In this document: positions 1,356 through 14,705 of the stretch, piece after piece
Position numbering within the stretch: the first letter of the stretch is position 1
How the letters are laid out: every line of letters starts with the position of its first letter
Assembly (NCBI GenBank): GCA_035515635.1
Contig: DATJBB010000003.1
Span: forward strand, 187,536 to 219,535
Reading direction: 5' to 3'
DNA length: 32,000 bases
Source: Nitrososphaerales archaeon
Lineage (GTDB): Archaea; Thermoproteota; Nitrososphaeria; Nitrososphaerales; Gagatemarchaeaceae
Program-made: the position numbers and the translations under genes
Notes under the pieces: model-generated
Database searches by the model: none
Seen by the model: only the letters and a program-made list of their open reading frames with translations
What the model was told of the DNA's origin: nothing

Positions 1356-2224
1356 GCAGGCTCGCAGGCCTTCGGAGGCTCCCTGTGTACGTCGGGCTCC
1401 TCCTCGCGTCGCTCTTCGCGTTCTGGCCGATCATGATCATGGCCTTCGAGGGGGCGGACATCGACCTCGGCCCGCTCTTCTCGGGCAAGGGCATCTCCTA
1501 CGTCTCCGGGGTCCCATACTACAGCGGCGGGTTCTTCCCCACCTGGGCGAACTACCGCGACGCGCTCGCCTGGGGGGACTTCCCCAAGCTCGTCCTCAAC
1601 TCCACGAGCATCGCCCTCCTGAGCATCGCGATTGCCCTCGCCGCGGGGATCCCCGCGGGGTACGTCCTGGCCAGGTCGAAGCTCAAGGGGATGGGCGCGA
1701 TAGGCTTCCTCCTCCTCGCCCTCAGGACCGTCTCGCCGTTCGCGATAGTCCTCCCTCTCTACCTCCTCTACGTCAACGTCGGGCTATTCGACACCACCCT
1801 CGGGATGAGCCTCGCCTACCTGGTCATCGACGTCCCGGTGGTCGTCTGGATGCTCAGCGGGTTCTTCAGCGAGGTCCCTGGGACGGTCTACGAGGCAGCA
1901 GAGTCCGCGGGGGCGACGGAGAGGCAGATCTTCTGGAGGATAGCCGTCCCGTCAGTCGCGGTGGGGATAGCGGCCACAGCAATCTTCGCGTTCATCCTTA
2001 TCTGGAACGAGTTCCTCATGGCAAGCCTCCTCACAGGCGCCGCCACCAAGACGGTGAGCGTGGGCGTCTGGTCCGGCGTGGGCGAGGGCTTCGGGGGGCT
2101 AAAGTCGGCGAACTGGGACGCGATCAACGCCGCGGGTGCGCTCGCGTTCTTCCCGGCGTTCGCGATGATCCTTGTCGTCAGGCGGTACTTGGCGAAGGGC
2201 TTCAGCCTCGCGACCGCGAGCTAG
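1352..2224 (+). CDS. ABC transporter permease, MalG/UgpE-like
   Basis: This is the C-terminal 290 aa of the artefactual track ORF 377..2224. ATG 1352 overlaps the upstream stop (ATGA) and has GAGGAAG just upstream. EAA loop: EAAESAGATERQIFWRIAVPSV. Confidence 0.85.
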   Translation: MSRLAGLRRLPVYVGLLLASLFAFWPIMIMAFEGADIDLGPLFSGKGISYVSGVPYYSGGFFPTWANYRDALAWGDFPKLVLNSTSIALLSIAIALAAGIPAGYVLARSKLKGMGAIGFLLLALRTVSPFAIVLPLYLLYVNVGLFDTTLGMSLAYLVIDVPVVVWMLSGFFSEVPGTVYEAAESAGATERQIFWRIAVPSVAVGIAATAIFAFILIWNEFLMASLLTGAATKTVSVGVWSGVGEGFGGLKSANWDAINAAGALAFFPAFAMILVVRRYLAKGFSLATAS

Positions 2225-2726
2225 CCGCCCGGGCCGCCTTCCTCGGGGAGCGAGACGCCGGCCGCAGGAGGAAGCCCGAGACGCACGCCCCGTAGCGCCC
2301 CTTCACCTCTTCCGGGAGGCGGCTGTAGCTCCCCACCACCTTCCTGCAGGAGCCCGAGCCGCACTTGCACTCCATCGAGAACCCGTCCCAGCCGACGTTG
2401 GTGGAGTAGTCGAAGGTCACCTCCTCGCCTCGAGATATCCTTCTGAGCGCGACGATCCTCGTCCTGCCCATTATCACGCAGTTTGGCTCGCAGGAGTGGT
2501 TCATGAACCACCCCGGCGACCCCCGCTCGGGCAGGACGTATCTGTCGTAGTCGACCTGGAAGCAGTACTGCCAGACCTCTGCGGGTATGTCGTTGATCCA
2601 CCTCTCTTCCCCGCCGTAGTCCCAGACGAGCTCTCCCGACTCTATAATCCTGGCCGCGAAGACCCCCCTCCCCTTCGCCCCGGCGTCTCCTATCTCGAGG
2701 GCGGGGCCCGCGCTCGCCTCCGTCAA
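2202..2726 (-). CDS. SET-domain protein (putative lysine methyltransferase)
   Basis: Motifs GRGVFA, NHSCEPN and EEVTFDY are present, plus a post-SET-like Cys cluster CKCGSGSC. TTG start. The basic S/R-rich tail overlaps the convergent permease 3' end by 23 nt. Confidence 0.8.
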   Translation of the reverse strand: MTEASAGPALEIGDAGAKGRGVFAARIIESGELVWDYGGEERWINDIPAEVWQYCFQVDYDRYVLPERGSPGWFMNHSCEPNCVIMGRTRIVALRRISRGEEVTFDYSTNVGWDGFSMECKCGSGSCRKVVGSYSRLPEEVKGRYGACVSGFLLRPASRSPRKAARAASSRSRG

Positions 2727-2748: not shown

Positions 2749-2758
2749 CTTTATAGAG
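2749..2758. promoter_or_regulatory. Single TATA-like box shared by two divergent leaderless genes
   Basis: CTTTATAGAG is the only AT-rich element in the 60-nt gap. It is about 27 nt from the SET start (2726, minus) and about 30-34 nt from the regulator start (2787, plus). Confidence 0.4.
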
Positions 2759-2786
2759 GTGCCAGGTTAGAATCATCCGAACCAAT

Positions 2787-3554
2787 GTGGGGCAGCGAGC
2801 CGACCAGATCCTCCAGCCGTCGAAGGGCTGGGTGAGGGACGGAATCCTGTCGCTGCTCGCGAAGGGTCCCGCGACCGCCACCGAGGTAGCCAACAAGCTG
2901 GGGGTGTCGAAGGCCACCGTCTCCTACCACACAAAGGCGCTGATCCGCAGAGACATCATAGAGATCTCCGACATTCAGAGCATCCGCGGCGGGGTCTACA
3001 GCAAGACCTACTCCCTGAGGGGAGCGGGCCCTCCCCTCGCGGGCAGGCGGGGCGAGCAGGAGGGCGCGCTCTCGCACCTCGACGAGATATTCGAGAAGAT
3101 GATGATGACCTGGCACCTCGAGCCCAAGAGGAGGCCCTCCGACGAGATCGAGGTCTTCCTCTACCACCTCTTCAGGATACTCACCGAGGCCGATTCTCTC
3201 GACCGGGCCAGCCTCAACGAGTTCGGACAGCGCGTCGGGAACCTCATGATCTCTCCCGCCCTCAATGTCCCGACGATGAAGAGAGGGCTGAGGGAGCTGG
3301 CGGACTACCTCAGCACGGAGGGGATGGCCGAGGTCTCAGCCGAGGTTGCGAAGGGGCAGGAGGCGAGGCTCGTCTGCATGGGGTGCTTCGAGAACAGGAA
3401 CTACGGCGGACTTGTCTGCTCCTTCACGGAGGGGATGCTCACGGGGGCGATCAGGGCGAAGCACGGCGGGAGGCCGCAGCTTGAAAGGTTGAAACGGGCG
3501 GAGGGCGAGCCTGGCTGCGCATACGTAGTGAAGGTCAGGGGGTCCAGGTCTTGA
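2787..3554 (+). CDS. Transcription regulator: ArsR-like winged HTH plus a C-terminal V4R-like ligand-binding domain
   Basis: N-terminus ILSLLAKGPATATEVANKLGVSKATVSYHTKALIRRDII is a wHTH. C-terminus VCMGCFENRNYGGLVCSFTEGMLTGAIRAKHGG...EPGCAYVVKV fits the Cys/Gly pattern of V4R domains. GTG start. Confidence 0.6.
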   Translation: MGQRADQILQPSKGWVRDGILSLLAKGPATATEVANKLGVSKATVSYHTKALIRRDIIEISDIQSIRGGVYSKTYSLRGAGPPLAGRRGEQEGALSHLDEIFEKMMMTWHLEPKRRPSDEIEVFLYHLFRILTEADSLDRASLNEFGQRVGNLMISPALNVPTMKRGLRELADYLSTEGMAEVSAEVAKGQEARLVCMGCFENRNYGGLVCSFTEGMLTGAIRAKHGGRPQLERLKRAEGEPGCAYVVKVRGSRS

Positions 3555-4333
3555 GCAGGCGGAAGCGCGAGAAGGCCCGGCCCGCCCGCGCCGCGGTCGA
3601 GGGCGTCGGAGACGACAGGCCTCTGGACAAGAGCGCCTTCCTCTCGCTCCTCAAGCGTAGGCTCGAGGGCAAGTACCAGGACAAGCACCCGCTGATGGTC
3701 ATGCTCTACGCCGGAAAGCTCTCGCCCAAGCAGCTGCGCGCGTGGATAATCAACAGGTTCTACCTTCAGAAGAACATCCCTCTCAAAGACGCCGCCATCC
3801 TCTCGAACTGTCCCGAGACCGAGGTGAGGAAGCTGTGGATAGGCAGGATCCTGAAGCGCGAGGGCCTCGGCGGGAGCATCGGCGACGTGGAGGGCTGGCT
3901 GGGCTTCGCCGAGTCGGCGGGCGTCTCGAGGGACGACGTCCTAAGGGCGAGGTGCCTCCCCGGGGTGAGGTTCGCAGTGGACGGGTACGTCAACTTCGCG
4001 AGGAGGGCGGACTGGACTGAGGGGGTCGCCGCGTCACTCATCGAGTACTTCGCCAGGGGCGAGCTGATCAAGAGGATCGAGGCCTTCAAGCGCCACTACC
4101 CGTGGATAGAGCCGGCGGGCTACCGCTTCTTCATGTCGAGGCTGGGCCAACTCGACGAAGCCAACGAGACCACGCTGAGGATAGTCCTCCGCTACTGCGA
4201 AACTATGGAGAAGCAGATGCGGGCGATAGACGCGGCCGTCTCCATGGCGGACATCTACTGGAGCCTCCACGACGCGATATACGTCGCCTACGTCATCCAG
4301 GACAGGCCGCTCGCCGACTCGCTCGCCGGGTAG
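3551..4333 (+). CDS. pqqC: PqqC-family protein (homologue of pyrroloquinoline-quinone synthase) with substituted catalytic residues
   Basis: It is colinear with bacterial PqqC over about 230 aa. Shared blocks are NRFYLQKNIPLKDAAILSNCPE, RKLWIGRIL, LPGVRFAVDGYVNFARR, HYPWIEPAGYRFFMSRL and YWSLHDA. The TTG start overlaps the regulator stop (TTGA). Confidence 0.85.
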   Translation: MSRRKREKARPARAAVEGVGDDRPLDKSAFLSLLKRRLEGKYQDKHPLMVMLYAGKLSPKQLRAWIINRFYLQKNIPLKDAAILSNCPETEVRKLWIGRILKREGLGGSIGDVEGWLGFAESAGVSRDDVLRARCLPGVRFAVDGYVNFARRADWTEGVAASLIEYFARGELIKRIEAFKRHYPWIEPAGYRFFMSRLGQLDEANETTLRIVLRYCETMEKQMRAIDAAVSMADIYWSLHDAIYVAYVIQDRPLADSLAG

Positions 4334-4335
4334 GC

Positions 4336-6237
4336 TCAGGCGCGCTTCGTGGCCCTGCCAAGGGACCTGTTCTCGACCACCAGAAACACGACCACTGCCG
4401 CGAGCAGGCCAGAGGCGACCCAGGGGACGTAGCCCTCCCACGACTGCCCTCCGGGAGCCGAAACGGGCGAGAGCTGGTACGCCATCAGGGCGCCTGGCAC
4501 GGCCCCGGCGAACGCCCCGTACGCCGAAGTCCCCACCAGCTGGAACAGCCTGACCGTCCCGTCCACCCCCGCCCCGACCGTCGGGCTCTCGTAGAGCGGA
4601 GGACCTACGTATATGTCCACGACCTGCACGCCGCTCCCCGCGTCGAGGACGTGGATGCTCCCGTCCAGGCTCCCAGCGAAGATGAGCCCGTTGCTGGCCG
4701 TGAGCCAGCCTCTGTACGGGATGCTCTGCATGAAGTAGCTCCAGTCTACCTTCCCTGTTGACTCGTCGATGGCGTAGATCGTGGTGTTCGCCGTCTGCGC
4801 CTCCGGGCTGAGGCTCGTCACGCCCCAGTACTGGCTACCCTCTGAGCTCACTGAGGTGACCTGGCCGTAGGTGCACAGGTTGTAGGTCGCTACGTAGACC
4901 TTCGAGTAGGCGACGGCGATGTCCGACTCGACCGCCCCGTTCTCGCCGGGACACTGCTTGAACTGCTGTGTCGAGGGGTAGTTTATCCACGGCAGGCTCC
5001 CCGAGTAATTCTGGGTGACCACGTAGTTGGCGTTCCCAGTCAGGTTCCTCTCCACCGTGGGCGGGTCGAAGTACCAGAGGAGCCTCCCGGTCATCGCATC
5101 CAGCGCGTAGAGGTAGCCGTTCTTGCACGCCTTGAACACAGCCTCGTGCCCGTCGACAGCCCCTAGGACCGTGTTCCACCCGCAGTCGAAGTCGTAGAGG
5201 TCGTGGGGGGTCGTCTGATAGAACCAGACCATCCTCCCGTTCGTGACGTTAAGTGCGACAACGGAGTCGGCGTAGAGGTCGGGCCCAGGCCTGTACGTCC
5301 CGTTCCAGTCCGGGGAGGCCTGCGAGGTGGAGACGAAGACCATCCCGTGCCTCTCGTCCACCAGGGGCTCGCCGAAGCTCGGCCCCGCCCCTGCCACGGG
5401 CCCCGCGGAGCCCGGCGGGTTGAGGCTCATGGTCCCCCAGTCCCCGACGACGGGAGCGACGTTACCGTGGCAGGGTGGTGGGCATGACTCCTCGTCCCAG
5501 CTCTGGTTGCCGCCCGCGGCCGGGGTGACGTACCAGCGCCAGAGCAGGGCACCGGTCTGGATGTCGTACGCCGCCACGAAGCCCCTTCCGACATCGGTCC
5601 CCTCGGAGACGGAGCTCGTCCATATCATGGTGTTGCCGTCGAAGACGGGAGGCACCCCCGAGGAGTCGTAGAACCCCCCGTTCCCTGGGATGTCCTTGCA
5701 CAACCCGCCGATCTGCATGACCTGGTCGCCGGTGAGTGCGTTGAGCGCGTGGACGGAGCAGTCGGGCATGCTGACCCAGATGTCCCCCCGGTAGTAGTCG
5801 ATGCCGTGCATGTGCCCCGTCAGGGGCGAGAGCGGGAGGCCGGTTGTGTTGAGGTGGGCGGCGTACGACCAGAGCACCGAGCCCGTCTCGGCGTCCAGGG
5901 CGTAGACGGTGAGGTAGTTGGTGACGAGGTAGACCGTCCCGTTGACCACGAGCGGCGGCGATATCGAGCCCTGCCCTACCACCGCGAGGCCAGGGACGCT
6001 CGGGGCGACCGGGAAGGGGAACGTCCACGCCACCTGGAGGTCCTGGGCGTTCGATGCCCCTATCTGGTCCTGGGCGACGTAGTTCGTCGAGTTGGCGTTC
6101 GAGTTCATCGTCGTCCAGCTCGGCAAGGGTTGGCCGTTCGCCTGCGCGGCCGCGGGAGCCGCCGGCGACCCGAGCCCGACCAGCATCAGCACCAGCGAGG
6201 CCAAGGCGAGGGCCTTCCTTCCCCGGGACCGTTCCAT
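4336..6237 (-). CDS. Surface-anchored 8-bladed beta-propeller of the quinoprotein (PQQ) alcohol/methanol dehydrogenase type, paralogue 1
   Basis: Track ORF 4336..6354 trimmed to ATG 6237 (signal peptide MERSRGRKALALASLVLMLVGLG; a TATA-like box lies about 25-30 nt upstream). Blocks colinear with MxaF/ExaA are AWTFP..PLVVNGTVY..YALDAETGSVLW, SEGTDVGRGFVAAYDIQTGALLWRW, SPDWNGTYRPGPDLYADSVVALNVTNGRMVWFYQTTPHDLYDFDCGWN and KACKNGYLYALDAMTGRLLW. C-terminal TM: ASGLLAAVVVFLVV. Confidence 0.85.
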   Translation of the reverse strand: MERSRGRKALALASLVLMLVGLGSPAAPAAAQANGQPLPSWTTMNSNANSTNYVAQDQIGASNAQDLQVAWTFPFPVAPSVPGLAVVGQGSISPPLVVNGTVYLVTNYLTVYALDAETGSVLWSYAAHLNTTGLPLSPLTGHMHGIDYYRGDIWVSMPDCSVHALNALTGDQVMQIGGLCKDIPGNGGFYDSSGVPPVFDGNTMIWTSSVSEGTDVGRGFVAAYDIQTGALLWRWYVTPAAGGNQSWDEESCPPPCHGNVAPVVGDWGTMSLNPPGSAGPVAGAGPSFGEPLVDERHGMVFVSTSQASPDWNGTYRPGPDLYADSVVALNVTNGRMVWFYQTTPHDLYDFDCGWNTVLGAVDGHEAVFKACKNGYLYALDAMTGRLLWYFDPPTVERNLTGNANYVVTQNYSGSLPWINYPSTQQFKQCPGENGAVESDIAVAYSKVYVATYNLCTYGQVTSVSSEGSQYWGVTSLSPEAQTANTTIYAIDESTGKVDWSYFMQSIPYRGWLTASNGLIFAGSLDGSIHVLDAGSGVQVVDIYVGPPLYESPTVGAGVDGTVRLFQLVGTSAYGAFAGAVPGALMAYQLSPVSAPGGQSWEGYVPWVASGLLAAVVVFLVVENRSLGRATKRA

Positions 6238-6444
6238 TGAGCTCCCTCCCTCCCCGCTCCGCTTTAATCTTAGGCGGGGCCTGCGACGCCTTCCTCGACG
6301 AATAAGATTCCGCCGAGCGGGGGGCAGGTGCAGCCCCATTCCGAGGCGAAACAACCATTGACTATCACAACATCCCGGAGAACCTTACTCCAGGCTTGAC
6401 CCTTTCGGAAAGGTCTTAAGGCGAGAGGCTCCCGCCAGTGAAGA

Positions 6445-7935
6445 TTGGAAGCGCTCGCGAGGCGGCGCAAGTGGTTCTCGCTTTTTGCTGTCAACTTGGG
6501 CAACTTCGCTCCTCCCCTTGACACGGGGATAATGGCGCTAATCCTCCCGACCATAGCGGTCAGCCTAAAGGCGGACGTCCAGCTCGTGCTCTGGGTCCCC
6601 CTCGAGTCGCTGATCGTCACCGCCTGCTTCATGCCGATCTTCGGGAGGTTCTCCGACCGCCACGGGAGGAAGAGGTACTTCATCCTCGGGCTCGCCCTCT
6701 TCTCCCTGGGGTCGTACCTTTCGGGGAACTCCCTGACGATCTACGACCTCCTGATCTACAGGGTGGTACAAGCGCTCGGCGGGGCCTTCATCCTCTCCAA
6801 CGGGAGGGCGCTCATCGTGGACGCCTTCGAGCCCAAACAGAGGGGGTTCGCGCTCGGCACGCACATCTCGGTGATCTACACTGCGACGACCGTGGGGGTC
6901 GCCCTGACCGGGACGGTGATCGGGATAACCCAGGCCGTGGGCTGGAGGTACGTCTTCTATGCCAACGCCGCCATCGCCCTGATATCGATCCCCATCTCGT
7001 ACCTCGCACTGCGGGAGAGCCCGAAGAACGTCAACGTCAAGACAGACTGGCCGGGCGCGATCTTCCTCGCGGGGGCGCTGAGCTCCGCCCTGGTCGCCCT
7101 GACCGCCTACTCGAACGGGACCACCGCGATCAACATGTACATCCAGGACATCTACGTCCCGCTCCTCCACTTCTACATCTACCTGAACTCCGCCTACTCC
7201 ATCCCGGACTACGCGGTGGCTGCGGTTTGCATAGTCTCCACCGTCCTCTTCATCGCGCGCGAGCTCACCGCCCCCCAGCCCCTCATCAACTTCAAGTGGT
7301 TCAGGACTAACTCCATGTTCGCCTCGACCAACTTCTCAGCCCTCTTCGTGTACATGGCTCACTACAGCACGCTGATTCTGCTATCGTTCTACCTCGAGGA
7401 GATCAGGCTCATCTCTCCGTTCAACGCCGGGCTCATCCTCACCATAGAGCCGCTCGCGGTGACGGTCTTCGCCCTCTTCGGCGGCTGGATAGCCAGCAGG
7501 ACTGCCAGCCGGGACCCTGCGGTCGCCGGCCTCGTCATAGTCACCTTCGCTCTCCTCATGCTCAGCACGCTCTCCCAGACCTCCTCCACCTTCCTGATCA
7601 CATTCCTGCTGGGGATGCTCGGGGCTGGCGTCGGGATCTTCGCCCCGAGCAACACCAACGCCAACCTGGCATCCGTCCCGCCGGGCGACCGCGCCCTCGC
7701 CAACGGGATACTCGGGATGATGAGGCACACTGGGCAGGCTGTCAGCCTCGCCATAGGGAGCATAATCATCGGCGTCTTCCTTTTCGGGCTCACCGGGAGC
7801 GGCACCGTCCTCCCGTCTCAGTACATCTCGGCGCTAAGCCTGACTTTCCTTGTGGGCGCGGCGATGGCTGCAGTGGCCGCCGGCTTTGCCTTCCGGGGAA
7901 GGGAGCTCCTGGGCCCTACGCGCGAGGTTGCGTAG
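6445..7935 (+). CDS. MFS transporter, DHA2/EmrB-like (about 14 TM)
   Basis: MFS loop motif FGRFSDRHGRKRYF, with about 14 hydrophobic spans across 496 aa. TTG start, with TCTTAAG 25-31 nt upstream. The 3' end overlaps the convergent paralogue 2 by 20 nt. Confidence 0.85.
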   Translation: MEALARRRKWFSLFAVNLGNFAPPLDTGIMALILPTIAVSLKADVQLVLWVPLESLIVTACFMPIFGRFSDRHGRKRYFILGLALFSLGSYLSGNSLTIYDLLIYRVVQALGGAFILSNGRALIVDAFEPKQRGFALGTHISVIYTATTVGVALTGTVIGITQAVGWRYVFYANAAIALISIPISYLALRESPKNVNVKTDWPGAIFLAGALSSALVALTAYSNGTTAINMYIQDIYVPLLHFYIYLNSAYSIPDYAVAAVCIVSTVLFIARELTAPQPLINFKWFRTNSMFASTNFSALFVYMAHYSTLILLSFYLEEIRLISPFNAGLILTIEPLAVTVFALFGGWIASRTASRDPAVAGLVIVTFALLMLSTLSQTSSTFLITFLLGMLGAGVGIFAPSNTNANLASVPPGDRALANGILGMMRHTGQAVSLAIGSIIIGVFLFGLTGSGTVLPSQYISALSLTFLVGAAMAAVAAGFAFRGRELLGPTREVA

Positions 7936-9865
7936 GGGCCCGTCTCCTGACCAGGATGTACATGGCCAGGACCACCACCACCACCCCGAGGGCGATTATT
8001 ATCGGCTGCTCGAGCCCTGGGCCGAAGATATTCGAGCTGGTCGTCGTGCTAGGCCCTCCCGACCCCGATGTCGTGGTGCCTTGCCCGAGCCAGAACGCGG
8101 TCACGACTCCGGGCGTCGCGTTGGGCAGGTCGCCGCCTCCCGAGGGGGCGAAGAGCATCATGTTCCCGTTGCTGTCTTCCGCTATCGAGACGCCCGCCGC
8201 CCCGAGCCCGCCCAGCTCGTAGCTGCTCAGTAGCGCCCCGGTCGCGGCGTTGAGTTCATAGAGGATCCCCGCCCTGTCGATGGCGTAGAGGACCCCTCCG
8301 CTCACCACGGCCGAGGAGCCCTGGTACCTGTTGGGGATGTTGTAGTGCCAGATCGGCTGGCCGTTCGAGAGGTTGATCGCGTAGACGGTCCCGTTCTGCT
8401 TCGCCGTCGAGTCGCCGGTGTAGACGTAGCCGTTGATGGTCTGGCCCTTGTAGGGGTACGGCCCGGCCGTCATCACGCCGCAGCCGTTCTGTGACGCCAC
8501 GTACAGCGTGTTCCCCACCACCGCGGGTGACATCTCCACTCCGCCGTCTGGCCCGGGGCAGATCCTCTGGTTGTTCCCGAGCGAGGACTGGGACGCCTGC
8601 AGGTTGGCGGTGGTCGTGTTCCCGTCGTTGAGGTTGTTCAGCGCGGGCGCGCCCACAGCGATGGGCGAGTAGACGAGCTTCCCCGTCAGCGCGTTGAGGA
8701 CGTAGACGTGGTTGTCCTTCGAGGCCTGTATGACCACCGGGGTGTTCACCCCGCTTATCGTCGCGTTGGCGAGGGTGACGCTCCACCCGCCTTCGTGCTC
8801 CGTGAGGTCGTGCGAGGTCATCTGGTAGTACCAGAGCATCTTCCCGTCGGTGGTGTTGAGCGCCACGAGGCAATCGGTGTACAGGTTGGGGCCAGGCCTG
8901 AGCGAGGCGTCGTACCCGTCAGACGGGTGGCCAGTCGAGAAGTAGATCACTCCGGTCTTGTTGTTCACCGCCATCAGCCCCCAGGCCGCACCACCCCCGG
9001 CGTAGAACTGGCTCTGCGACGTCGTCCCCCAGTCGCCCTGGTACGGGGTGATGTTCCCCTGCGGCTGGCCGTAGTTGACGGTCGTCCCGTTCGCCAGTAG
9101 GACCTCATCCTGGGAGTCCCAGTTAGTGTCTATCGGGCCGGTCGACGGAGGCGTCGAGTACCACATCCAAGCCAGGCTCCTTGTGTGGATGTTGTACGCG
9201 GCGACGAACCCCCTCCCGCCGTAGTCGGTCGTCGAGGCGCGGACGATGAGGTTGTCCCCGACCAGTATGGGTGCCTTCTCTCCGTAGTAGGTGCCCGTGT
9301 TCCCGGCGATGTTGGCCGCGACCGGGGGTATCGTCCAGTCGATCGTGCCGTTGAGCGCGTTGAAAGCGTAGACCGTCGTGTCAGACGACATCACATAGAG
9401 CGTCTCGTTGTAGAGCGAGATCCCGCTTATCGTGTAGGCCCCGGACCACCACGACTCGCCGATGAACTTGGTCATGTTGATCTGGTAGTTCCAGATCTTG
9501 GCGCCTGTCGTGGTGCTGAGCGCTATGATGTTGTTGTACGGGGTTGCGATGTAGACTATCCCGTTCTCGACGAGGGGTTGGGTCTCTACGCCGAGCGCCG
9601 GCGGGGCCCCTGGGATATTGAACGGGTTGACGGGGATCTGGTAGAACCACCTCAGCCTGAGGTCGGAGACGTTGTTCACGTTGATCACGTTCTGCGGGTC
9701 GCTGTTGGTGTTCTGGAAGTTGTAAGCAGAAGCCGCCCAGTTGGAGTAGGACGCGGTGGCGGCGGAGGCCGACTGCGCATGGGTGATGGCGTTCGCAGAG
9801 CCTCCCGCCGCGAGCATGAGGGCCAGAACGGACAAGGTCGCCACCTTGCTCCGCGAGGACCTCAT
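7916..9865 (-). CDS. Surface-anchored quinoprotein-dehydrogenase-type beta-propeller, paralogue 2 (most divergent)
   Basis: Signal peptide MRSSRSKVATLSVLALMLAAGGSANA. Family blocks are TTDYGGRGFVAAYNIHTRSLAWMWY, GGGAAWG, LRPGPNLYTDCLVALNTTDGKMLWYYQMTSHDLTEHEGGWS and SKDNHVYVLNALTGKLVY. A T/S-rich linker leads to the C-terminal TM IIIALGVVVVVLAMYILV. Confidence 0.85.
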   Translation of the reverse strand: MRSSRSKVATLSVLALMLAAGGSANAITHAQSASAATASYSNWAASAYNFQNTNSDPQNVINVNNVSDLRLRWFYQIPVNPFNIPGAPPALGVETQPLVENGIVYIATPYNNIIALSTTTGAKIWNYQINMTKFIGESWWSGAYTISGISLYNETLYVMSSDTTVYAFNALNGTIDWTIPPVAANIAGNTGTYYGEKAPILVGDNLIVRASTTDYGGRGFVAAYNIHTRSLAWMWYSTPPSTGPIDTNWDSQDEVLLANGTTVNYGQPQGNITPYQGDWGTTSQSQFYAGGGAAWGLMAVNNKTGVIYFSTGHPSDGYDASLRPGPNLYTDCLVALNTTDGKMLWYYQMTSHDLTEHEGGWSVTLANATISGVNTPVVIQASKDNHVYVLNALTGKLVYSPIAVGAPALNNLNDGNTTTANLQASQSSLGNNQRICPGPDGGVEMSPAVVGNTLYVASQNGCGVMTAGPYPYKGQTINGYVYTGDSTAKQNGTVYAINLSNGQPIWHYNIPNRYQGSSAVVSGGVLYAIDRAGILYELNAATGALLSSYELGGLGAAGVSIAEDSNGNMMLFAPSGGGDLPNATPGVVTAFWLGQGTTTSGSGGPSTTTSSNIFGPGLEQPIIIALGVVVVVLAMYILVRRRAPTQPRA

Positions 9866-9960: not shown

Positions 9961-11985
9961 CTAATATCGACGCCTCGAGTAGACCCACCCGACCGCGAGG
10001 ACGACCGCAGCCGCGGCCGCCACGACGGCGACGACTTGGCTCTCGAGGATGACCTGGACCGCCCCTCCATGCTGGGCAGGGATGACGAGCGCCTGGACGA
10101 ACCCCGGGAACGGCGGGCCCCACCTGGTCGACCCCATGTCGGTCAGCACGACCGCCATCCTGCCGTTCGCGTCCTCCCCTATCGAGGGCTGGACGAGGAG
10201 GGACCCCCCGACGTCGATTGTCGAGATGAGCTTCCCCGACCCCTCGTCGAGCATCCTGAGCACGCCGTCCAGGGTCGAGACGTAGACCACACCCGCACTC
10301 ACGGTCAGCCCCCCGCGGTATGGCTGGTCGGGGATCTGGAAGGCCCACTTCACGGCGCCCGTCGAGGCGTCGATGGCGTAGACGGTCGCGTTGACAGGCC
10401 CGAGCGGGTGGATGGTGAGAATCTGCACCCCCCAAGAGAACTCCCAAGAAGTGACGTTCTCCGGGGTCTTGGGAGGCCCTACATCGGAGAAGTTGAAGAG
10501 CTTGGCGTCGTTGTAGACAGCCGCGAAGACAGTGTTCGAGGCGGGGTCGAACGCGAGGTCCGACTCGAGCGCGCCGGTGTCGCTCGGGTTCTGTACGTTT
10601 GGCTTGGCCGACGGGTACCCGGCCCAGTTGTACTTTGTCATCTGGGTCGCGTTGAGTGGGTCGAGGACTGACACGTTCTGGTAGTCGATGGCGGGGGGCT
10701 TGAGGTACCAGAGCATTTTCCCCGTCGTCGCGTCCAGGGCGAAGATGTACCCGCTCTTGCACCCCTTGTACACGACGGGCGTAGACGTCCCCCCTATGGT
10801 GACGTTGGCCAAGACCACGTTCCAAGAGCAGTCGAAGTCCCCGAGGGCGTGGGGCATCGCCTGGAACGCCCATATCACCCTCCCGTTCGTCATGTTCAGC
10901 GCCAGCACGGACGAGCTCCAAAGGTCCGGGCCAGGCCGGTAGGTGGCGTTCCAGTCAGGCCCCGGGACGTTCGTCCCTACGTATGCGACCTTGGTCTTCT
11001 CGTCGATTGCCCAAGCACCTCCCCACCCCGCGCTCGCCCCGGCGAAGCTCGTCGTTCCGTTGAACCCGAAATTCCCCCAGTCTCTCATCAGCATGCTGCT
11101 CAGCTCCGACTGGGGGAGCGACTTGAGGTCGACCGCGCCCGTGCCGTCGAATATGTACGCGTGCGTCATGTTCATGACCGAGTCGAGCGACCAGGCCGGG
11201 TCGCTCCCGTCCTGCGGCGGGATGACGTAGGTCCTCCACATGAAGGAGGGGTGGGGAGAAGAGACGTTCCACGCCTCCAAGAAGCCCCTCCCAGCGCTGT
11301 CGCCTTCGGTCACCGACGGCGAGAACAGGAGCACCCCGTCCCTCTGGTCTATCGCCATGGTCGGGGTGTCGACGTCGTAGAGCCCATAGCTGCCCTGAAT
11401 CCCGGCCTGTCGGTCGTTGATGAACGGGTCGAAGTCGAGTGCGATGTCGCCCGTCGTCGCCTTGATCGCGAACACCTGGTAGGTGTTCGAGACCACCCAG
11501 ACGAGGGGCTCGTCCCACAGCTGCGTCGTGATGAACATCGCATGGTAGTGGCCCAGCGGTATCCCCAGGGGCCCTGGCACCGAGGGCTGGAGGTACTGAG
11601 AGTAGTTGTCCATCAGCGGGAGGTCCCGGTACCACACGACGTCCCCGTTCTCCAGGTTGAGTGCGTAGAGGCGCGACCAGTTTGTTATCGCGTAGACCAC
11701 GCCCTCGTAGATGAGCGGGGTGGCCATCACGCCCTCGGCCATCTGGACCTGCCCGACGGGGGCGGCCGGGACCGGGAAAGTCCAGGCAGCCCCGAGCTGG
11801 CCGACGTTCTGGGCGTTGATGACGGTCTGGTTGTCGCTGCTCCAATTGAGCGGGTAGTTGTTCTCGGGCCCCGTCCAGTCGGCCGAATGCGCGGCCTCCT
11901 GGGCCGAGACGCCTGTCCCGCCCAGAAGCAAGAGCATCATCCCGGCGGCCGCGAAGACGACGGAGGCCGGCCTCGCCTTTCTCAT
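9961..11985 (-). CDS. Surface-anchored quinoprotein-dehydrogenase-type beta-propeller, paralogue 3
   Basis: Track ORF 9961..12060 trimmed to ATG 11985 (MRKARPASVVFAAAGMMLLLLGGTGVSAQEA). Family blocks are TEGDSAGRGFLEAWN, GPDWNATYRPGPDLWSSSVLALNMTNGRVIWAFQAMPHALGDFDCSWN and YKGCKSGYIFALDATTGKMLWY. C-terminal TM: VVAVVAAAAAVVLAVGWVY. Confidence 0.85.
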   Translation of the reverse strand: MRKARPASVVFAAAGMMLLLLGGTGVSAQEAAHSADWTGPENNYPLNWSSDNQTVINAQNVGQLGAAWTFPVPAAPVGQVQMAEGVMATPLIYEGVVYAITNWSRLYALNLENGDVVWYRDLPLMDNYSQYLQPSVPGPLGIPLGHYHAMFITTQLWDEPLVWVVSNTYQVFAIKATTGDIALDFDPFINDRQAGIQGSYGLYDVDTPTMAIDQRDGVLLFSPSVTEGDSAGRGFLEAWNVSSPHPSFMWRTYVIPPQDGSDPAWSLDSVMNMTHAYIFDGTGAVDLKSLPQSELSSMLMRDWGNFGFNGTTSFAGASAGWGGAWAIDEKTKVAYVGTNVPGPDWNATYRPGPDLWSSSVLALNMTNGRVIWAFQAMPHALGDFDCSWNVVLANVTIGGTSTPVVYKGCKSGYIFALDATTGKMLWYLKPPAIDYQNVSVLDPLNATQMTKYNWAGYPSAKPNVQNPSDTGALESDLAFDPASNTVFAAVYNDAKLFNFSDVGPPKTPENVTSWEFSWGVQILTIHPLGPVNATVYAIDASTGAVKWAFQIPDQPYRGGLTVSAGVVYVSTLDGVLRMLDEGSGKLISTIDVGGSLLVQPSIGEDANGRMAVVLTDMGSTRWGPPFPGFVQALVIPAQHGGAVQVILESQVVAVVAAAAAVVLAVGWVYSRRRY

Positions 11986-12093
11986 GCGACCACCACCTAG
12001 AGGCCCAGGTCGTCTCGATTTAGACCCTTTCCTCTCGAACCAATCCACGGAGCACCACACTCGTTAAAAGCCCGCTCCGGGGGCAAAGAATTC

Positions 12094-12840
12094 GTGGACT
12101 TCGCGGAGACAGTGCTCCTCTCGGCGATAATGGGCCTGTCGATCTTCCTCTCCCTCCCGATAGTCCTCCACAAGAACACCGACGCGCGCCGGACCAAGCT
12201 CCTGACCTCGGTGGCGATAGGCATACTGATCTTCCTGATGGGGGACGTCTTCACCGATGCGGCCGCTTCCCTGTACAACGGGTCGCTGTATGGCTACGGA
12301 TCCTCGCCCACGAACGACGTGGTGTTCGTGTCAGCCCTCTTTGCGGGTTTCTTGATACTCTTTGCAGCAGAGAACAGGTCGAAGGAGGGACTCACCCCGA
12401 CCGAGCTTTCGCTTGTCATCGCGGTAGGCATGGGTTTCCAGAACCTCACCGAGGGCCTGGTGTTCGGCTCCCTCGGAGTGGCGTTCGGCCTCTCCGGAGC
12501 CGCCCTCGTCGTACTCGTGGGCTTCATACTCCAGAACATCAGCGAGGGATTCCCAATCGCTTCCCCCTTCCTCGGCAAGGTCCAAGGCAAGACCGGCCTG
12601 ATCGTGGTGCTGTACCTGGTTGGGGGCGTCCCGACGATCATAGGGGGTTCGATAGGGCACTTCTACAACTCGTCGGTCTTCGACCTGGCCTTTGACGGCC
12701 TCGCCATCGGGGCGATCCTCTACGCCATCCTCCCCATGCTCAAGGCGCTCTTCAGGGAGTCCTCGAGGGACCTCCTGCGCCTCACCTATCTGGGGGTCTT
12801 CGTGGGCTTCGTGATAGGCTTCCTGGTGAACCTGCTGTGA
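12094..12840 (+). CDS. ZIP-family (ZupT-like) divalent metal carrier with an atypical metal-site motif
   Basis: About 8 hydrophobic spans. The two ZIP signature helices read GFQNLTEGLVFG and ILQNISEGFPIA, in place of the usual HNxPEG. GTG start, with GTTAAAAG 25-30 nt upstream. Confidence 0.7.
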   Translation: MDFAETVLLSAIMGLSIFLSLPIVLHKNTDARRTKLLTSVAIGILIFLMGDVFTDAAASLYNGSLYGYGSSPTNDVVFVSALFAGFLILFAAENRSKEGLTPTELSLVIAVGMGFQNLTEGLVFGSLGVAFGLSGAALVVLVGFILQNISEGFPIASPFLGKVQGKTGLIVVLYLVGGVPTIIGGSIGHFYNSSVFDLAFDGLAIGAILYAILPMLKALFRESSRDLLRLTYLGVFVGFVIGFLVNLL

Positions 12841-12852
12841 GGGAGGCGAACG

Positions 12853-14646
12853 ATGAACAGGCGTAGATTCATCGAGGTACTGGGCGGCGGGGCAATAGGG
12901 GTGGCTGCGCTCGGGTACGGCGTCTCAAGGCTGCTCCCACCGAAGCACGCCGAGCCATCAGGGAAGCTCGACCCACAGTCCCTGACGAAGTTCGTCGACC
13001 CGCTCCCCATCCCAGCCGTGATGGTTCCCACGGCCCCCGGAGGCACTTACGAGGTGAAGATGACCCAGATCAGCCAGAAGCTCCACGACCAGCTCCCCGC
13101 AACCACCCTGTGGGGGTACAACGGGTCCTCTCCCGGCCCATCCTTCGAGGCGGTCAAGGGGACGCCCATCTCGGTCACCTACCTCAACGAGCTCCCGACG
13201 ACGCACCTCTTCGAGGACGCGATCGACCATACCATCGCCCACGTCCACGGCTACCCGGACGTCCGGACGGTCGTCCACCTCCACGGCGCCGAGGTCAAGG
13301 CGGACAGCGACGGCAACCCGACGGCCTGGTTCTCCTTCGCCTTCGAGACGACGGGGCAGGGGTGGTCGCACCAGACCTACACCTACCCAAACTCGCAGGA
13401 GGCAGCAACCCTCTGGTACCACGACCACGCGATAGGGACGACCCGGCTCAACCTCTGCGCCGGCCTCGCGGGCTTCTACTTCCTCAGGGACCCGACCCTC
13501 CAGTTCGAGGCAAGCCTCCCCGGGGGCTCTGACGACAGGCCGCACGCCGGAGCGGGCCCCTACGAGGTGCCCCTCATGATTCAAGACAGGCTCTTCAACG
13601 CCGACGGCTCGATCCTCTATCCGGACCAGGGGGTCAATCCCGACGTCCATCCGCAGTGGATACCCGAGTACTTCGGGGACACGATCCTCGTCAACGGGAA
13701 GGTCTGGCCCTACCTCGAAGTCGAGCCCCGCAAGTACAGGTTCCGGTTCCTCGACGCGTCGAACGCGCGCTTCTACGACCTCTCGTTCGCGAACAAGCCG
13801 GTGACCATCAACCAGATCGGGACAGACGGCGGCTACCTCCCCGAACCGGTGGCGATCAACGACGTCTTCATCGCCCCGGCGGAGCGGGTCGACGCTGTCG
13901 TCGACTTCTCCGCGATGGAGGTCGGCGACACCGCGGTCCTCTACAACACCGCCCCGGCGCCTTATCCCGGCGGGGACGTCCCAGACCCCGACACCATCGG
14001 CCAGATAATGCAGTTCAGGGTGGTGGAGGCGAAGGGGAAGGACAACAGCGTCCTGCCCACCTCCATGGTGCCAGTGCCCCAGCTCCCGTTCCCCGGGGAG
14101 TCGGTCAGCGCTACGAGGAGCCTCATCCTCATCGAGTACGACACGGACGCCGGGCCGGTCACCGGCCTACTCAACAACGCCGCCTACGACAACACGATAT
14201 CGGAGAACCCCGTCCTCGGCTCGACCGAGATCTGGGAGCTGATCAACCTCACCGAGGATGCCCACCCGATCCACCTCCACCTCGTCCAGTTCCAGATATT
14301 CAACCGACAGGAGTTCGATGCCGACAAGTACCTGGCCGACTACCAGACGGCCAACCCTGACATGTCCCCCGGCTCGGGGCCTGGGACAGTCCTCGACCCC
14401 ACGCCGTACTTCGAGGACGACCCCTTCCTGGTCACACCTCAGGAGGCCGGGTGGAAGGACACCGTCAAGGCCTACCCGGAGGTGATCACCAGGCTGATCG
14501 TCAGGTTCGCCCCGAGGGACGGGACCGACTTCGCCTTCGACGCCACCGCCGCCCCCAACTACATCTGGCACTGCCACATCCTCGAACACGAGGACAACGA
14601 GATGATGAGGCCGTACCAGGTCCTCCCGCGGACAGTGGCCCCCTGA
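12853..14646 (+). CDS. Tat-exported three-domain multicopper oxidase (CotA/bilirubin-oxidase-like laccase)
   Basis: Twin-arginine leader MNRRRFIEVLGGGAIGVAALG. All four copper motifs are present: VHLHG, WYHDHA, HPIHLHL and HCHILEHEDNEMM. GGGAGG lies 6 nt before the ATG. Confidence 0.9.
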   Translation: MNRRRFIEVLGGGAIGVAALGYGVSRLLPPKHAEPSGKLDPQSLTKFVDPLPIPAVMVPTAPGGTYEVKMTQISQKLHDQLPATTLWGYNGSSPGPSFEAVKGTPISVTYLNELPTTHLFEDAIDHTIAHVHGYPDVRTVVHLHGAEVKADSDGNPTAWFSFAFETTGQGWSHQTYTYPNSQEAATLWYHDHAIGTTRLNLCAGLAGFYFLRDPTLQFEASLPGGSDDRPHAGAGPYEVPLMIQDRLFNADGSILYPDQGVNPDVHPQWIPEYFGDTILVNGKVWPYLEVEPRKYRFRFLDASNARFYDLSFANKPVTINQIGTDGGYLPEPVAINDVFIAPAERVDAVVDFSAMEVGDTAVLYNTAPAPYPGGDVPDPDTIGQIMQFRVVEAKGKDNSVLPTSMVPVPQLPFPGESVSATRSLILIEYDTDAGPVTGLLNNAAYDNTISENPVLGSTEIWELINLTEDAHPIHLHLVQFQIFNRQEFDADKYLADYQTANPDMSPGSGPGTVLDPTPYFEDDPFLVTPQEAGWKDTVKAYPEVITRLIVRFAPRDGTDFAFDATAAPNYIWHCHILEHEDNEMMRPYQVLPRTVAP

Positions 14647-14705
14647 CCAGAGGAGAGCCTTCTGTCCCCAACAGAGCCGCCTGCCTCCTGGACCGGGGAG
14701 GGTTC

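Follow-up and report, generated by a model that had tools for sequence, protein, structure and literature searches.

The window analysed here, a stretch of 32,000 nucleotides from a Nitrososphaerales archaeon, carries a gene for a PqqC-like protein (PqqCL) that follows the gene of a transcription regulator (REG) and is flanked by genes for PQQ dehydrogenases and transporters. The features to which the text refers are as follows, in window coordinates.

432 to 2224 (432-1355 and 1352-2224), forward strand: two ABC importer permeases, MalFG/GlcTU-like and of the CUT1 type, syntenic in most related loci.
2202 to 2726, reverse strand: gene of a SET-domain protein, oriented divergently to REG and kept in synteny inside the window's subclade.
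2750 to 2755, forward strand: TTTATA, resembling an archaeal TATA box, in the promoter of the REG-PqqCL operon; orthologous loci keep it.
2766 to 2782, forward strand: imperfect palindrome of 17 nt, GTTAGAATCATCCGAAC, located downstream of the TATA box and ahead of the REG start, a candidate autoregulatory operator.
2787 to 3554, forward strand: REG, transcription regulator of 255 aa with an ArsR-type winged HTH and a V4R-like sensor domain.
3551 to 4333, forward strand: PqqCL, 260 aa, with the seven-helix PqqC fold, predicted to be cytoplasmic and without a signal peptide.
4336 to 6354, reverse strand: PQQ-dehydrogenase paralogue 1 (PQQDH1), a XoxF/PedH-like beta-propeller that carries a signal peptide and, at its C terminus, a TM anchor.
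6445 to 7935, forward strand: DHA2/EmrB-type MFS efflux transporter, always paired with a PQQDH2 orthologue.
7916 to 9865, reverse strand: PQQ-dehydrogenase paralogue 2 (PQQDH2), also with a signal peptide and a TM anchor at the C terminus; its D-Y-D position reads E-H-E.
9961 to 12060, reverse strand: PQQ-dehydrogenase paralogue 3 (PQQDH3), with D-F-D at the PedH/XoxF D-x-D site.
12094 to 12840, forward strand: conserved 248-aa protein without a family match, syntenic beside PQQ-dehydrogenase genes.

The PqqCL reading frame runs from a TTG codon at 3551 to the stop at 4333. No start codon other than this TTG precedes the conserved region; the first ~26 residues of the protein show little conservation and have low confidence in the model. 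A preliminary description had proposed from the letters of the DNA that the frame encodes a PqqC homologue, and this is confirmed by family models, PDB matches and the predicted fold. The protein scores 116.3 bits (E 2.1e-33) against Pfam PF03070 (TENA/THI-4/PQQC), above the gathering threshold of 22 bits, and 226.5 bits (E 3e-67, model positions 10-227 of 239) against the PqqC equivalog model TIGR02111 (EC 1.3.3.11), slightly under that model's cut-off of 240 bits. Members of its clade are named ‘hypothetical protein’ by NCBI. Its best PDB matches are the Klebsiella pneumoniae PqqC structures 1otv, 1otw and 3hlx (E about 1e-60), and in the HMMER alignment residues 30-253 pair with K. pneumoniae PqqC with one gap that is a single residue long, giving 43-45% identity across ~225 residues. 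The AF2 model (pLDDT 93.9) displays the seven-helix PqqC fold, and the top Foldseek matches are the closed, PQQ-bound structures 3hlx and 1otw (TM 0.83, 43% identity), to which the model is closer than to the apo structure 1otv (TM 0.79). TenA, CADD, UndA and BesC also appear among the fold matches.

Pocket positions in PqqCL were assigned by alignment to PqqC, and all 14 residue correspondences offered in the preliminary description are reproduced in the HMMER alignment and in two MAFFT alignments, which shows that its register was correct. Following a PqqC=PqqCL numbering, the retained residues are Y23=Y42, R50=R69, K60=K79, R80=R99, Y128=Y146, R157=R175 and R179=R197, and the substitutions are H24Q43, Y53L72, H84R103 (RILDHDG in PqqC becomes RILKREG), T146I164, H154L172, Y175F193 and K214M232. 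The long identical runs with PqqC reported at the same time, LPGVRFAVD.Y.NFARRA and HYPWI, are both present in PqqCL. In K. pneumoniae PqqC we take residues R50, K60, R80, R157 and R179 to clamp the three carboxylates of AHQQ or PQQ, H84 to be the proposed acid/base, and H154, Y175 and R179 to form the O2/peroxide pocket; the roles of H84, Y175, H154 and R179 reportedly stem from work by Klinman and Schwarzenbacher. Residue roles were also drawn from PDB entry titles and from PMC2294125.

Whether archaeal orthologues share the substitutions had been posed as a check, and ~60 clade members do carry the same pattern. Across them R50, K60, R80, R157 and R179 vary little or not at all, whereas eight positions are replaced throughout the clade (H24, H30, Y53, D83, H84, T146, Y175 and K214, with H84 always Arg) that are 89-100% conserved among canonical PqqCs. 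In PqqCL itself these catalytic, proton-relay or O2-site residues read H24Q, H30M, Y53L, D83K, H84R, T146I, Y175F and K214M. Most of the replacing residues are themselves 88-100% conserved in the clade (R103 100%, M49 100%, L172 100%, F193 97%), and because they are conserved across ~60 members the pattern is not the chance property of one sequence. Further differences that had escaped the by-eye comparison are H30 to M49, D83 to K/R102, D85 to E104, G93 to D112 and L222 to H240, and residues D112, E171 and H240 are newly conserved in the clade; the Y23 position, by contrast, is variable inside it. Two of the replaced histidines call for caution. Bona fide PqqCs have M, I or H at position 154, so the loss of H154, which had been counted as informative, is not diagnostic; H84 is Gln in roughly 10% of canonical-type sequences and may therefore be non-essential. 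A phenylalanine at position 175 is compatible with PQQ binding, since the PDB holds a structure of PqqC Y175F with PQQ bound.

The ~60-protein clade is found in non-ammonia-oxidising soil Thaumarchaeota (Gagatemarchaeaceae/Group I.1c), with the Caldarchaeum homologue as an intermediate. PqqCL belongs to a branch of the PqqC family that is specific to this lineage of Nitrososphaeria and locally orphan. Its dN/dS of 0.06-0.17 against close orthologues indicates strongly purifying selection, and hence a functional protein.

A search of the window and 21 variant loci (±10 kb, 386 kb in all) for the PqqA motif and for relatives of PqqB, PqqD and PqqE found none, which bears out the earlier remark that no other pqq gene is adjacent and extends it to about 10 kb on either side of the related genes. 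In the control loci L021 and L024, pqqA/B/D/E are adjacent to the canonical-type gene, and the relatives P0064 and P0065, which have canonical residues, sit in pqq(A)BCDE clusters. A curated HMT thaumarchaeal annotation contains, among the entries listed, only pqqC (K06137) under PQQ synthesis (PMC7300363). The sub-cut-off family score, the eight replaced positions and the local lack of pqqA/B/D/E uphold the earlier judgement that a canonical PQQ synthase is unlikely.

The gene upstream of PqqCL is translationally coupled to it, as the TGA stop of REG and the TTG start of PqqCL share 4 nt (cTTGAg). Co-translation with a V4R regulator had been claimed previously and is supported, although the V4R-like character of the sensor domain had to be argued from the alignment to MsvR, from the fold comparison and from the names given by JGI, because the Pfam V4R model gave no match to the C-terminal 150 aa at E values up to 10. 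REG aligns over its full length with the MsvR model NF053755 (62.7 bits, 4e-17, against a cut-off of 220 bits), its C-terminal domain alone matches the V4R part of MsvR (1.3e-8), and the fold of that domain matches the V4R-type sensor domain of PoxR (E 7e-4, TM 0.46). Homologues in JGI are named ‘predicted hydrocarbon binding protein’, and a phmmer search of PDB sequences returned nothing beyond weak HTH matches. The sensor domain contains four invariant cysteines (C197, C200, C211 and C244). The family comprises 100 matches that are confined to the thaumarchaeal lineage of PqqCL and tied to it. In Caldarchaeum the regulator and PqqC-like genes are convergent rather than co-transcribed, and the 270-aa protein encoded upstream of the Caldarchaeum homologue has neither similarity to REG nor a family match.

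In 10 related loci the palindrome of the REG promoter is found in the corresponding position, with no other occurrence in those loci. Scanning all loci with an IUPAC pattern (<=3 mismatches) and a PWM located no further copies near the PQQ-dehydrogenase, MFS or ABC genes, which makes REG less likely as a regulator of the quinoprotein genes. The proposal that PqqCL acts as a sensor partner of REG is accordingly unsupported, as the sole conserved operator-like motif is that of REG's own promoter.

PqqCL had been called an orphan. The term is apt with regard to biosynthesis genes but misleading if it implies isolation, since three PQQ-dehydrogenase paralogues, the efflux MFS transporter and ABC permeases flank it in conserved synteny. 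PQQDH1 is likely to begin at the Met near 6237. It converges on PqqCL, with 2 nt between the stop codons, and the arrangement of REG and PqqCL convergent with a PQQDH1 orthologue recurs in 13 of 14 sufficiently long loci, even where PqqCL identity has dropped to 55%. In PQQDH1 the D-Y-D site of XoxF reads D-F-D. This organism very probably uses PQQ, judging from the D-x-D catalytic/lanthanide motif that both PQQDH1 and PQQDH3 retain. Multicopper oxidase and NHL genes also lie nearby. An FbpA/PhnS2-like ABC importer adjoins REG/PqqCL in L003/4, L005, L006, L016 and L020, and in L022 it shares an operon with a near-canonical orphan, P0061; in the window's own subclade this importer is not adjacent, and the sugar-type CUT1 system is found instead. 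Compared with solved structures, the linked ABC substrate-binding proteins (SBPs) resemble FbpA/HitA/AfuA/P5PA, which are binders of the Fe3+/AfuA/PLP kinds. A role for them as PqqT-like PQQ binders was considered and is unsupported, PqqT being absent from the structure matches.

To account for these observations, we favor, with a probability of roughly 0.45, a reading in which PqqCL is not an ordinary PQQ synthase but a cytoplasmic protein under regulatory control, whose part in cofactor salvage or handling is to bind PQQ or a related tricarboxylate, or to convert it. PqqCL is read as something other than the AHQQ-to-PQQ synthase that ends a de novo pathway, because its carboxylate clamp is intact but the polar region of the pocket that would shuttle protons is rebuilt, with three His, two Tyr, a Thr, a Lys and an Asp giving way to Met, Leu, Phe, Ile and Arg. 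In the proposed mechanism, PqqCL would bind externally acquired PQQ or a close tricarboxylated quinoline and then hold or convert it, and this step would supply the membrane-anchored, extracytoplasmic quinoprotein dehydrogenases encoded alongside. REG would most likely be a repressor of the two-gene operon to which it belongs, acting at the conserved palindrome, which presumably lies over the transcription start, and binding of a small ligand would release the repression. We infer the ligand of PqqCL and the balance between binding and catalysis, as well as import by the ABC system, export by the MFS transporter and the effector of REG. A cytoplasmic PQQ step is not obviously needed, as the dehydrogenases carry Sec-type signals for export and could acquire PQQ outside the cell. 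A more elaborate version, which we consider unlikely when taken as a whole, sees these abundant Thaumarchaeota as PQQ auxotrophs: an SBP-dependent ABC system would import bacterial AHQQ, PQQH2 or a PQQ-amino-acid adduct, the PqqCL clamp would bind this compound and convert it to PQQ by non-canonical chemistry, the DHA2 pump would return PQQ to surface-anchored, probably lanthanide-type dehydrogenases, and the V4R regulator would induce the operon with substrate. Such an archaeal PQQ salvage route would be previously undescribed.

Other explanations of the same pattern have to be weighed against this reading. PqqCL could still be a PQQ synthase that converts AHQQ or a near analogue to PQQ through other residues, such as R103, E171, D112 and H240, together with the intrinsic O2 reactivity of the substrate, with genes at other places in the genome or analogues that escape recognition, rSAM or MBL proteins for instance, supplying the upstream steps, or with import of the precursor making these steps unnecessary, and with PQQ leaving via the DHA2 pump. 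The close identity to PqqC and common fold, the retention of every carboxylate-binding Arg/Lys, and the variation of H154 and in part of H84 among genuine PqqCs are consistent with this idea, as are the efflux transporter conserved in the island, the assumption of this function in genome papers, and the archaeal orphan P0061, which keeps H24, Y53, H84, Y175 and K214 in an operon with an ABC importer near PQQ dehydrogenases and an MFS gene. We nevertheless regard it as doubtful, as all eight clade-wide replacements, each at a position at least 89% conserved in canonical PqqCs, occur jointly, the TIGR02111 score falls under the equivalog cut-off, none of the 21 loci has pqqA/B/D/E near the gene where canonical controls have them adjacent, and an arginine at position 84 cannot serve as a general base at physiological pH. 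The same remodelled pocket, with its newly conserved D112, E171, H240 and K/R102-R103, would suit a protein neofunctionalised for an anionic aromatic metabolite unrelated to PQQ, and D112, E171 and H240 might together make up a new catalytic centre for such a substrate; its place in the island would then reflect a shared catabolic pathway and not cofactor supply. The phenolic-sensing structural relatives of the operon's V4R-type regulator, the sugar-type ABC, multicopper oxidase and NHL genes nearby, and the functional diversity of a superfamily that includes TenA, CADD, UndA and BesC are all compatible with this account. It seems quite unlikely, however, because the five binders of the PQQ/AHQQ carboxylates persist across the clade, the linkage to PQQ-dehydrogenase genes is specific and reaches as far as Caldarchaeum, and no gain of a diiron ligand set is evident. 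A diiron-oxidase reading of PqqCL is rejected on its CADD family score (59.8 bits vs 200).

Translational coupling to REG, proximity to PQQ-dehydrogenase genes, and the combination of lost catalytic and kept binding residues would also fit a non-catalytic PQQ sensor that works as a co-regulator with REG, so that genes for apo-quinoproteins are switched on only when PQQ is available. Such a role is improbable, given that REG has a ligand-binding domain of its own, that the operator-like motif is conserved at the REG promoter and at none of the dehydrogenase, MFS or ABC genes, and that the Caldarchaeum genes are not co-transcribed. Finally, the local orphan status and the missing catalytic residues might be taken as signs of a decaying, functionless remnant of a lost pqq operon. 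This pseudogene or relic reading is effectively refuted by the purifying selection on PqqCL, and the conservation of the replacing residues, of synteny and promoter across lineages, and the confident AF2 model argue against it as well.

The distinction bears on published work, as this gene serves as evidence about PQQ supply in genome studies of marine heterotrophic Thaumarchaeota and of Gagatemarchaeaceae from soil; one calls PQQ production likely, and the other finds that the gain of pqqC matches the expansion of PQQ dehydrogenases (PMC7300363, PMC10640624). These claims of self-supply need checking, because PqqCL is without most of the catalytic residues and without partner genes nearby. 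If these archaea have no pqq gene but this variant without the canonical catalytic set, they probably rely on bacteria for PQQ or a late precursor, and such dependence, if true, alters how their carbon metabolism and ecological dependencies are modeled and what their cultivation requires. The clade is also a natural experiment on the cofactor-less oxidase PqqC, in which the clamp is kept and the proposed proton and O2 machinery is exchanged.

Among known systems, PqqC itself is the closest, sharing with PqqCL the seven-helix heme-oxygenase-like fold, both conserved sequence runs and the five carboxylate-binding Arg/Lys residues. PqqCL differs from it at the eight replaced positions, in scoring 226.5 bits against the cut-off of 240, and in being co-transcribed with a regulator among PQQ-dehydrogenase genes instead of lying beside pqqA/B/D/E. 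The archaeal proteins P0060/P0061, P0062/P0063 (Caldarchaeum) and P0080 are, like PqqCL, locally orphan and of archaeal type. P0061 and the Caldarchaeum proteins are encoded beside PQQ dehydrogenases and an FbpA/PhnS2-like ABC importer, with an MFS gene also present for P0061. The Caldarchaeum protein has H84R, Y175F and the loss of K214 in common with PqqCL but keeps Y53, whereas P0061 retains H24, Y53, H84, Y175 and K214 and has only R50 changed, to Met; P0080 is different again, with R50W and R179L, and adjoins Topo VI genes. The CADD/heme-oxygenase-like diiron oxidases (TIGR04305; 1RCW, 8VA9) adopt the same fold and are the second-best structural family (TM about 0.70-0.73), but identity is 18%, the score lies far under the cut-off, and there is no evident gain of a His/carboxylate metal-ligand set, as the PqqCL clade loses three His and gains one. 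REG shares with MsvR, the redox-sensitive wHTH-V4R regulator of methanogens, its two-domain layout and a conserved CxxC plus two further Cys; it is lineage-restricted and tied to PqqCL, and its score of 62.7 bits against a cut-off of 220 shows that it is not an MsvR equivalog. Quinoprotein organisms without PQQ synthesis take PQQ from outside through the TonB-dependent PqqU and the periplasmic SBP PqqT, and an SBP-dependent route has been suggested to carry PQQ towards the cytosol (PMC12124388, PMC11331073). No sequence relationship to PqqU or PqqT was detected in the island, and archaea lack both an outer membrane and a TonB system. TenA (thiaminase II, PF03070) has the superfamily fold of PqqCL, and TenA structures are among the fold matches, but with 11-17% identity, other active-site residues and another substrate, it leaves PqqCL clearly on the PqqC branch. 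TenA is a cytoplasmic cofactor-salvage enzyme whose substrate, a fragment of a degraded cofactor, enters through an ABC importer, and by analogy it may serve as a model for a salvage role of PqqCL.

The preliminary description noted that no other pqq gene adjoins the PqqC-like gene; this holds for biosynthesis genes, but the gene lies amid a quinoprotein island, arranged as follows.

Upstream of the regulator: two CUT1-type ABC permeases
2202-2726, minus strand: SET-domain protein, putative lysine methyltransferase, divergent from the regulator
2750-2755: TATA box TTTATA, upstream of the regulator
2766-2782: 17-nt imperfect palindrome GTTAGAATCATCCGAAC, 10 nt past TTTATA and ending 4 nt before the regulator's GTG start
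2787-3554, plus strand: regulator, 255 aa, ArsR-type winged HTH
3551-4333, plus strand: PqqC-like gene, 260 aa, TTG start
4336-6354, minus strand: PQQ dehydrogenase PQQDH1, 672-aa beta-propeller bearing a signal peptide and, at its C-terminus, a membrane anchor, convergent with the PqqC-like gene
6445-7935, plus strand: DHA2/EmrB-type efflux MFS, between two PQQ-dehydrogenase genes
7916-9865, minus strand: PQQDH2, a paralogue beyond the MFS gene
9961-12060, minus strand: PQQDH3, a paralogue beyond the MFS gene
12094-12840, plus strand: 248-aa protein unmatched in Pfam and NCBIfam, beside the PQQ-dehydrogenase genes

No start codon other than the TTG at 3551 precedes the conserved part of the PqqC-like protein; within cTTGAg this TTG shares bases with the TGA stop codon of the regulator gene, making translational coupling of the two genes plausible. 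At its other end, the PqqC-like gene is separated from PQQDH1 by stop ends 2 nt apart (4333-4336), leaving no space for terminators; the scan found no intrinsic terminator between the two genes, its sole site (4387-4402, minus strand) lying inside PQQDH1, and the 3' ends of the two transcripts must overlap. At the D-Y-D site of the lanthanide-dependent XoxF and PedH enzymes, PQQDH1 and PQQDH3 carry D-F-D. PQQDH2 carries E-H-E at this catalytic and lanthanide site of XoxF and may use another metal or be inactive. A multicopper oxidase and a large NHL-repeat protein come after the quinoprotein genes (12853-16472), and a mevalonate-3-kinase/diphosphomevalonate-decarboxylase-like gene lies farther along (19520-20494). 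At the left end, a minus-strand gene (1-385, start near 383) that extends past the window encodes a clear signal peptide, MGTAVLLVLLFLTVFASAPRAYA.

The PqqC-like protein matches the Pfam TENA/THI-4/PQQC family at 2e-33, and its score of 226.5 bits against TIGR02111, the NCBIfam PqqC equivalog, falls slightly below the 240-bit cut-off. Its top solved relatives are structures of K. pneumoniae PqqC (1otv, 1otw and 3hlx; E ~1e-60), and the alignment to this enzyme spans residues 30-253 with one gap of a single residue. An AlphaFold2 model, computed from an input alignment of 63 sequences, has a mean pLDDT of 93.9, with uncertainty confined to the first ~26 residues. It superimposes best on closed, PQQ-bound PqqC (3hlx and 1otw; TM 0.83) and more poorly on the open apo form (1otv; TM 0.79); lower-ranked structural matches include M. 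extorquens PqqC, CADD, TenA, UndA and BesC.

All residue mappings in the preliminary description were reproduced by a HMMER alignment and two MAFFT alignments. With K. pneumoniae PqqC numbering first and that of the window protein second, the pocket residues Y23=Y42, R50=R69, K60=K79, R80=R99, Y128=Y146, R157=R175 and R179=R197 are kept, whereas H24 is replaced by Q43, Y53 by L72, H84 by R103, T146 by I164, H154 by L172, Y175 by F193 and K214 by M232. Archaeal orthologues share these substitutions, which form a clade-wide pattern that is not limited to the window sequence. Across the 59 database proteins nearest to the window protein (49-88% identity), R50, K60, R80, R157 and R179 show little or no variation; position 84 is always Arg, position 154 always Leu, and position 175 Phe or, rarely, Ile. 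The remaining sites vary (H24 to Q/I/L/V, Y53 to L/F/M, T146 to I/F/Y and K214 to M/L/A), and Y23 is variable inside the clade. Comparing each alignment column between the clade and 56 canonical-type sequences revealed further positions that are conserved within each group yet group-specific: H30 (M49), D83 (K/R102), D85 (E104), G93 (D112) and L222 (H240). Loss of H154, listed in the preliminary description as part of the O2/peroxide pocket, is not diagnostic, as genuine PqqCs have M, I or H at this position. Comparison with close orthologues gave a dN/dS of 0.06-0.17 for the PqqC-like gene, indicating strong purifying selection and excluding its reading as a relic.

The related loci derive from Thaumarchaeota/Nitrososphaerota MAGs, including palsa_1368 as well as AcS1-13 and SubAcS15-57 from the study of Gagatemarchaeaceae (Group I.1c). 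In a neighbour-joining tree, the thaumarchaeal proteins and two Candidatus Caldarchaeum sequences form one clade separate from bacterial PqqCs; the Caldarchaeum proteins are intermediate, with H84R, Y175F, K214N and H24F present and Y53 retained. Among 1.84 billion cluster representatives searched with a profile, almost every other full-length relative carried the canonical signature Y-H-R-Y-K-R-H-Y-T-x-R-Y-R-K, and only a few other deviant types were found. The related archaeal-type orphan P0061 (locus L022) retains H24, Y53, H84, Y175 and K214, its sole pocket change being R50M. Its gene heads an operon (L022 2741-8629) encoding an FbpA/PhnS2-like SBP, a fused permease, a second SBP and an ATPase, which is flanked by PQQ-dehydrogenase genes and adjoined by an MFS gene; P0061 may catalyse the last step of PQQ synthesis, coupled to import. 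Another deviant orphan, P0080 (L023 6001-6729, an archaeal contig), has R50W and R179L and has lost K214, as have P0122 and P0139; its gene adjoins Topo VI genes, and no PQQ dehydrogenase occurs within 6 kb of it in L023.

Synteny was surveyed by tblastn across 20 related loci. The regulator directly precedes the PqqC-like gene in every thaumarchaeal locus with a readable region, 13 of the 14 loci reaching far enough have a convergent PQQDH1 orthologue downstream, and this three-gene arrangement persists down to 55% PqqC-like identity. The MFS-PQQDH2 pair recurs in most related loci, ABC permeases recur too, the SET-domain gene is syntenic across the window's subclade, and the 248-aa protein is conserved at 57-78% identity next to PQQ-dehydrogenase genes in eight related loci. 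In a deeper subclade (L005, L006, L016 and L020), an FbpA/PhnS2-like SBP and a fused permease directly adjoin the regulator, and the Caldarchaeum loci L003 and L004 show the same arrangement. A small cupredoxin-like protein encoded inside the island's CUT1-type ABC importer cluster (L001 6492-6932, L003 8651-9130) could be an electron acceptor of the quinoproteins.

As controls, we inspected two relatives that carry the canonical residues and rank among the closest. P0064 lies within a pqqA-B-C-D-E cluster, whose PqqA peptide (...SMEVTAYVNN) was located by motif, and P0065 is accompanied by PqqB, PqqE and PqqD next to a XoxF-type cluster. Searches with the PqqB, PqqD and PqqE proteins of locus L021 and the PqqA motif found no PqqA, PqqB, PqqD or PqqE in the window or in any of the 21 variant loci outside L021; with L021 counted, the search covered 386 kb.

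The regulator aligns to the MsvR model at 4e-17 over its full length and at 1.3e-8 when the C-terminal 150 aa alone are aligned to the V4R part, and the Pfam V4R model gives no match to this domain. The domain contains four invariant Cys residues and, in an AlphaFold2 model (pLDDT 81), resembles the PoxR phenol-sensor domain, Bet3 and H-NOX; several homologues are named 'predicted hydrocarbon binding protein' by JGI. The motif GTTAGAATWAWCYGAAC is exact and at the same position in 10 orthologous loci, despite synonymous divergence of 0.6-1.2 in the coding sequence, and has no further copies in those loci or in the window. Sitting over the expected start of transcription, the palindrome is placed as an autorepressor site would be. 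The dehydrogenase, MFS and ABC genes have no related site ahead of them, so the visible regulon is the regulator/PqqC-like pair, which argues against a PqqC-like co-sensor that switches on the dehydrogenases. The sensor partnership suggested in the preliminary description is thus disfavoured, and the PqqC-like protein fits better as a regulated output; a pure sensor role is unlikely.

We favour, with a probability of roughly 0.45, a role in cofactor salvage or handling, in which the protein would bind or convert PQQ or a related compound in the cytoplasm. The ligand is probably still PQQ or very similar, as none of the five basic clamp residues varies, the protein folds like PQQ-bound PqqC, a Y175F-PQQ complex has been solved, and linkage to PQQ-dependent dehydrogenases persists across lineages; an unrelated substrate is improbable. 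The recurring SBP-dependent importers, DHA2 exporter and surface-anchored dehydrogenases point to, though they do not demonstrate, a route in which PQQ or a related compound would be taken up by the importers, handled by the PqqC-like protein and exported by the DHA2 transporter to the dehydrogenases. A real weakness of this salvage or handling role is that the dehydrogenases, being Sec-exported, could acquire their PQQ externally, which leaves the need for a cytoplasmic step unexplained. Its main rival, which we consider unlikely, is that the protein has kept its PQQ-forming activity by means of other residues, an idea kept alive by the near-canonical orphan P0061 and by natural variability at H154 and at H84, the latter being Gln in about one-tenth of canonical-type sequences. 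The earlier judgement that a canonical PQQ synthase is unlikely stands: a role as the usual last enzyme of de novo PQQ synthesis is disfavoured because replacements affect eight positions that scarcely vary in PqqC, the score lies under the equivalog cut-off, and the pqq partners present beside the canonical controls are absent locally.

Both genome papers interpret the gene as a PQQ synthase (PMC7300363, PMC10640624). The literature bears indirectly on pqq genes elsewhere in the genomes: in the portion of the curated annotation of marine heterotrophic Thaumarchaeota consulted, K06137 (pqqC) is the sole entry under PQQ synthesis (PMC7300363), and the Gagatemarchaeaceae paper reports the gain of pqqC alone (PMC10640624). 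The family, the fold and the annotation of the gene as pqqC in thaumarchaeal genomes are already known. Our literature search found no published description of the residue changes, and no earlier account of the clade-wide pocket remodelling, the orphan status relative to controls or the conserved regulator operon. The finding undercuts the inference that these abundant archaea synthesise their own PQQ, and, set against canonical PqqC, the clade provides a natural variant for dissecting the chemistry of this enzyme.
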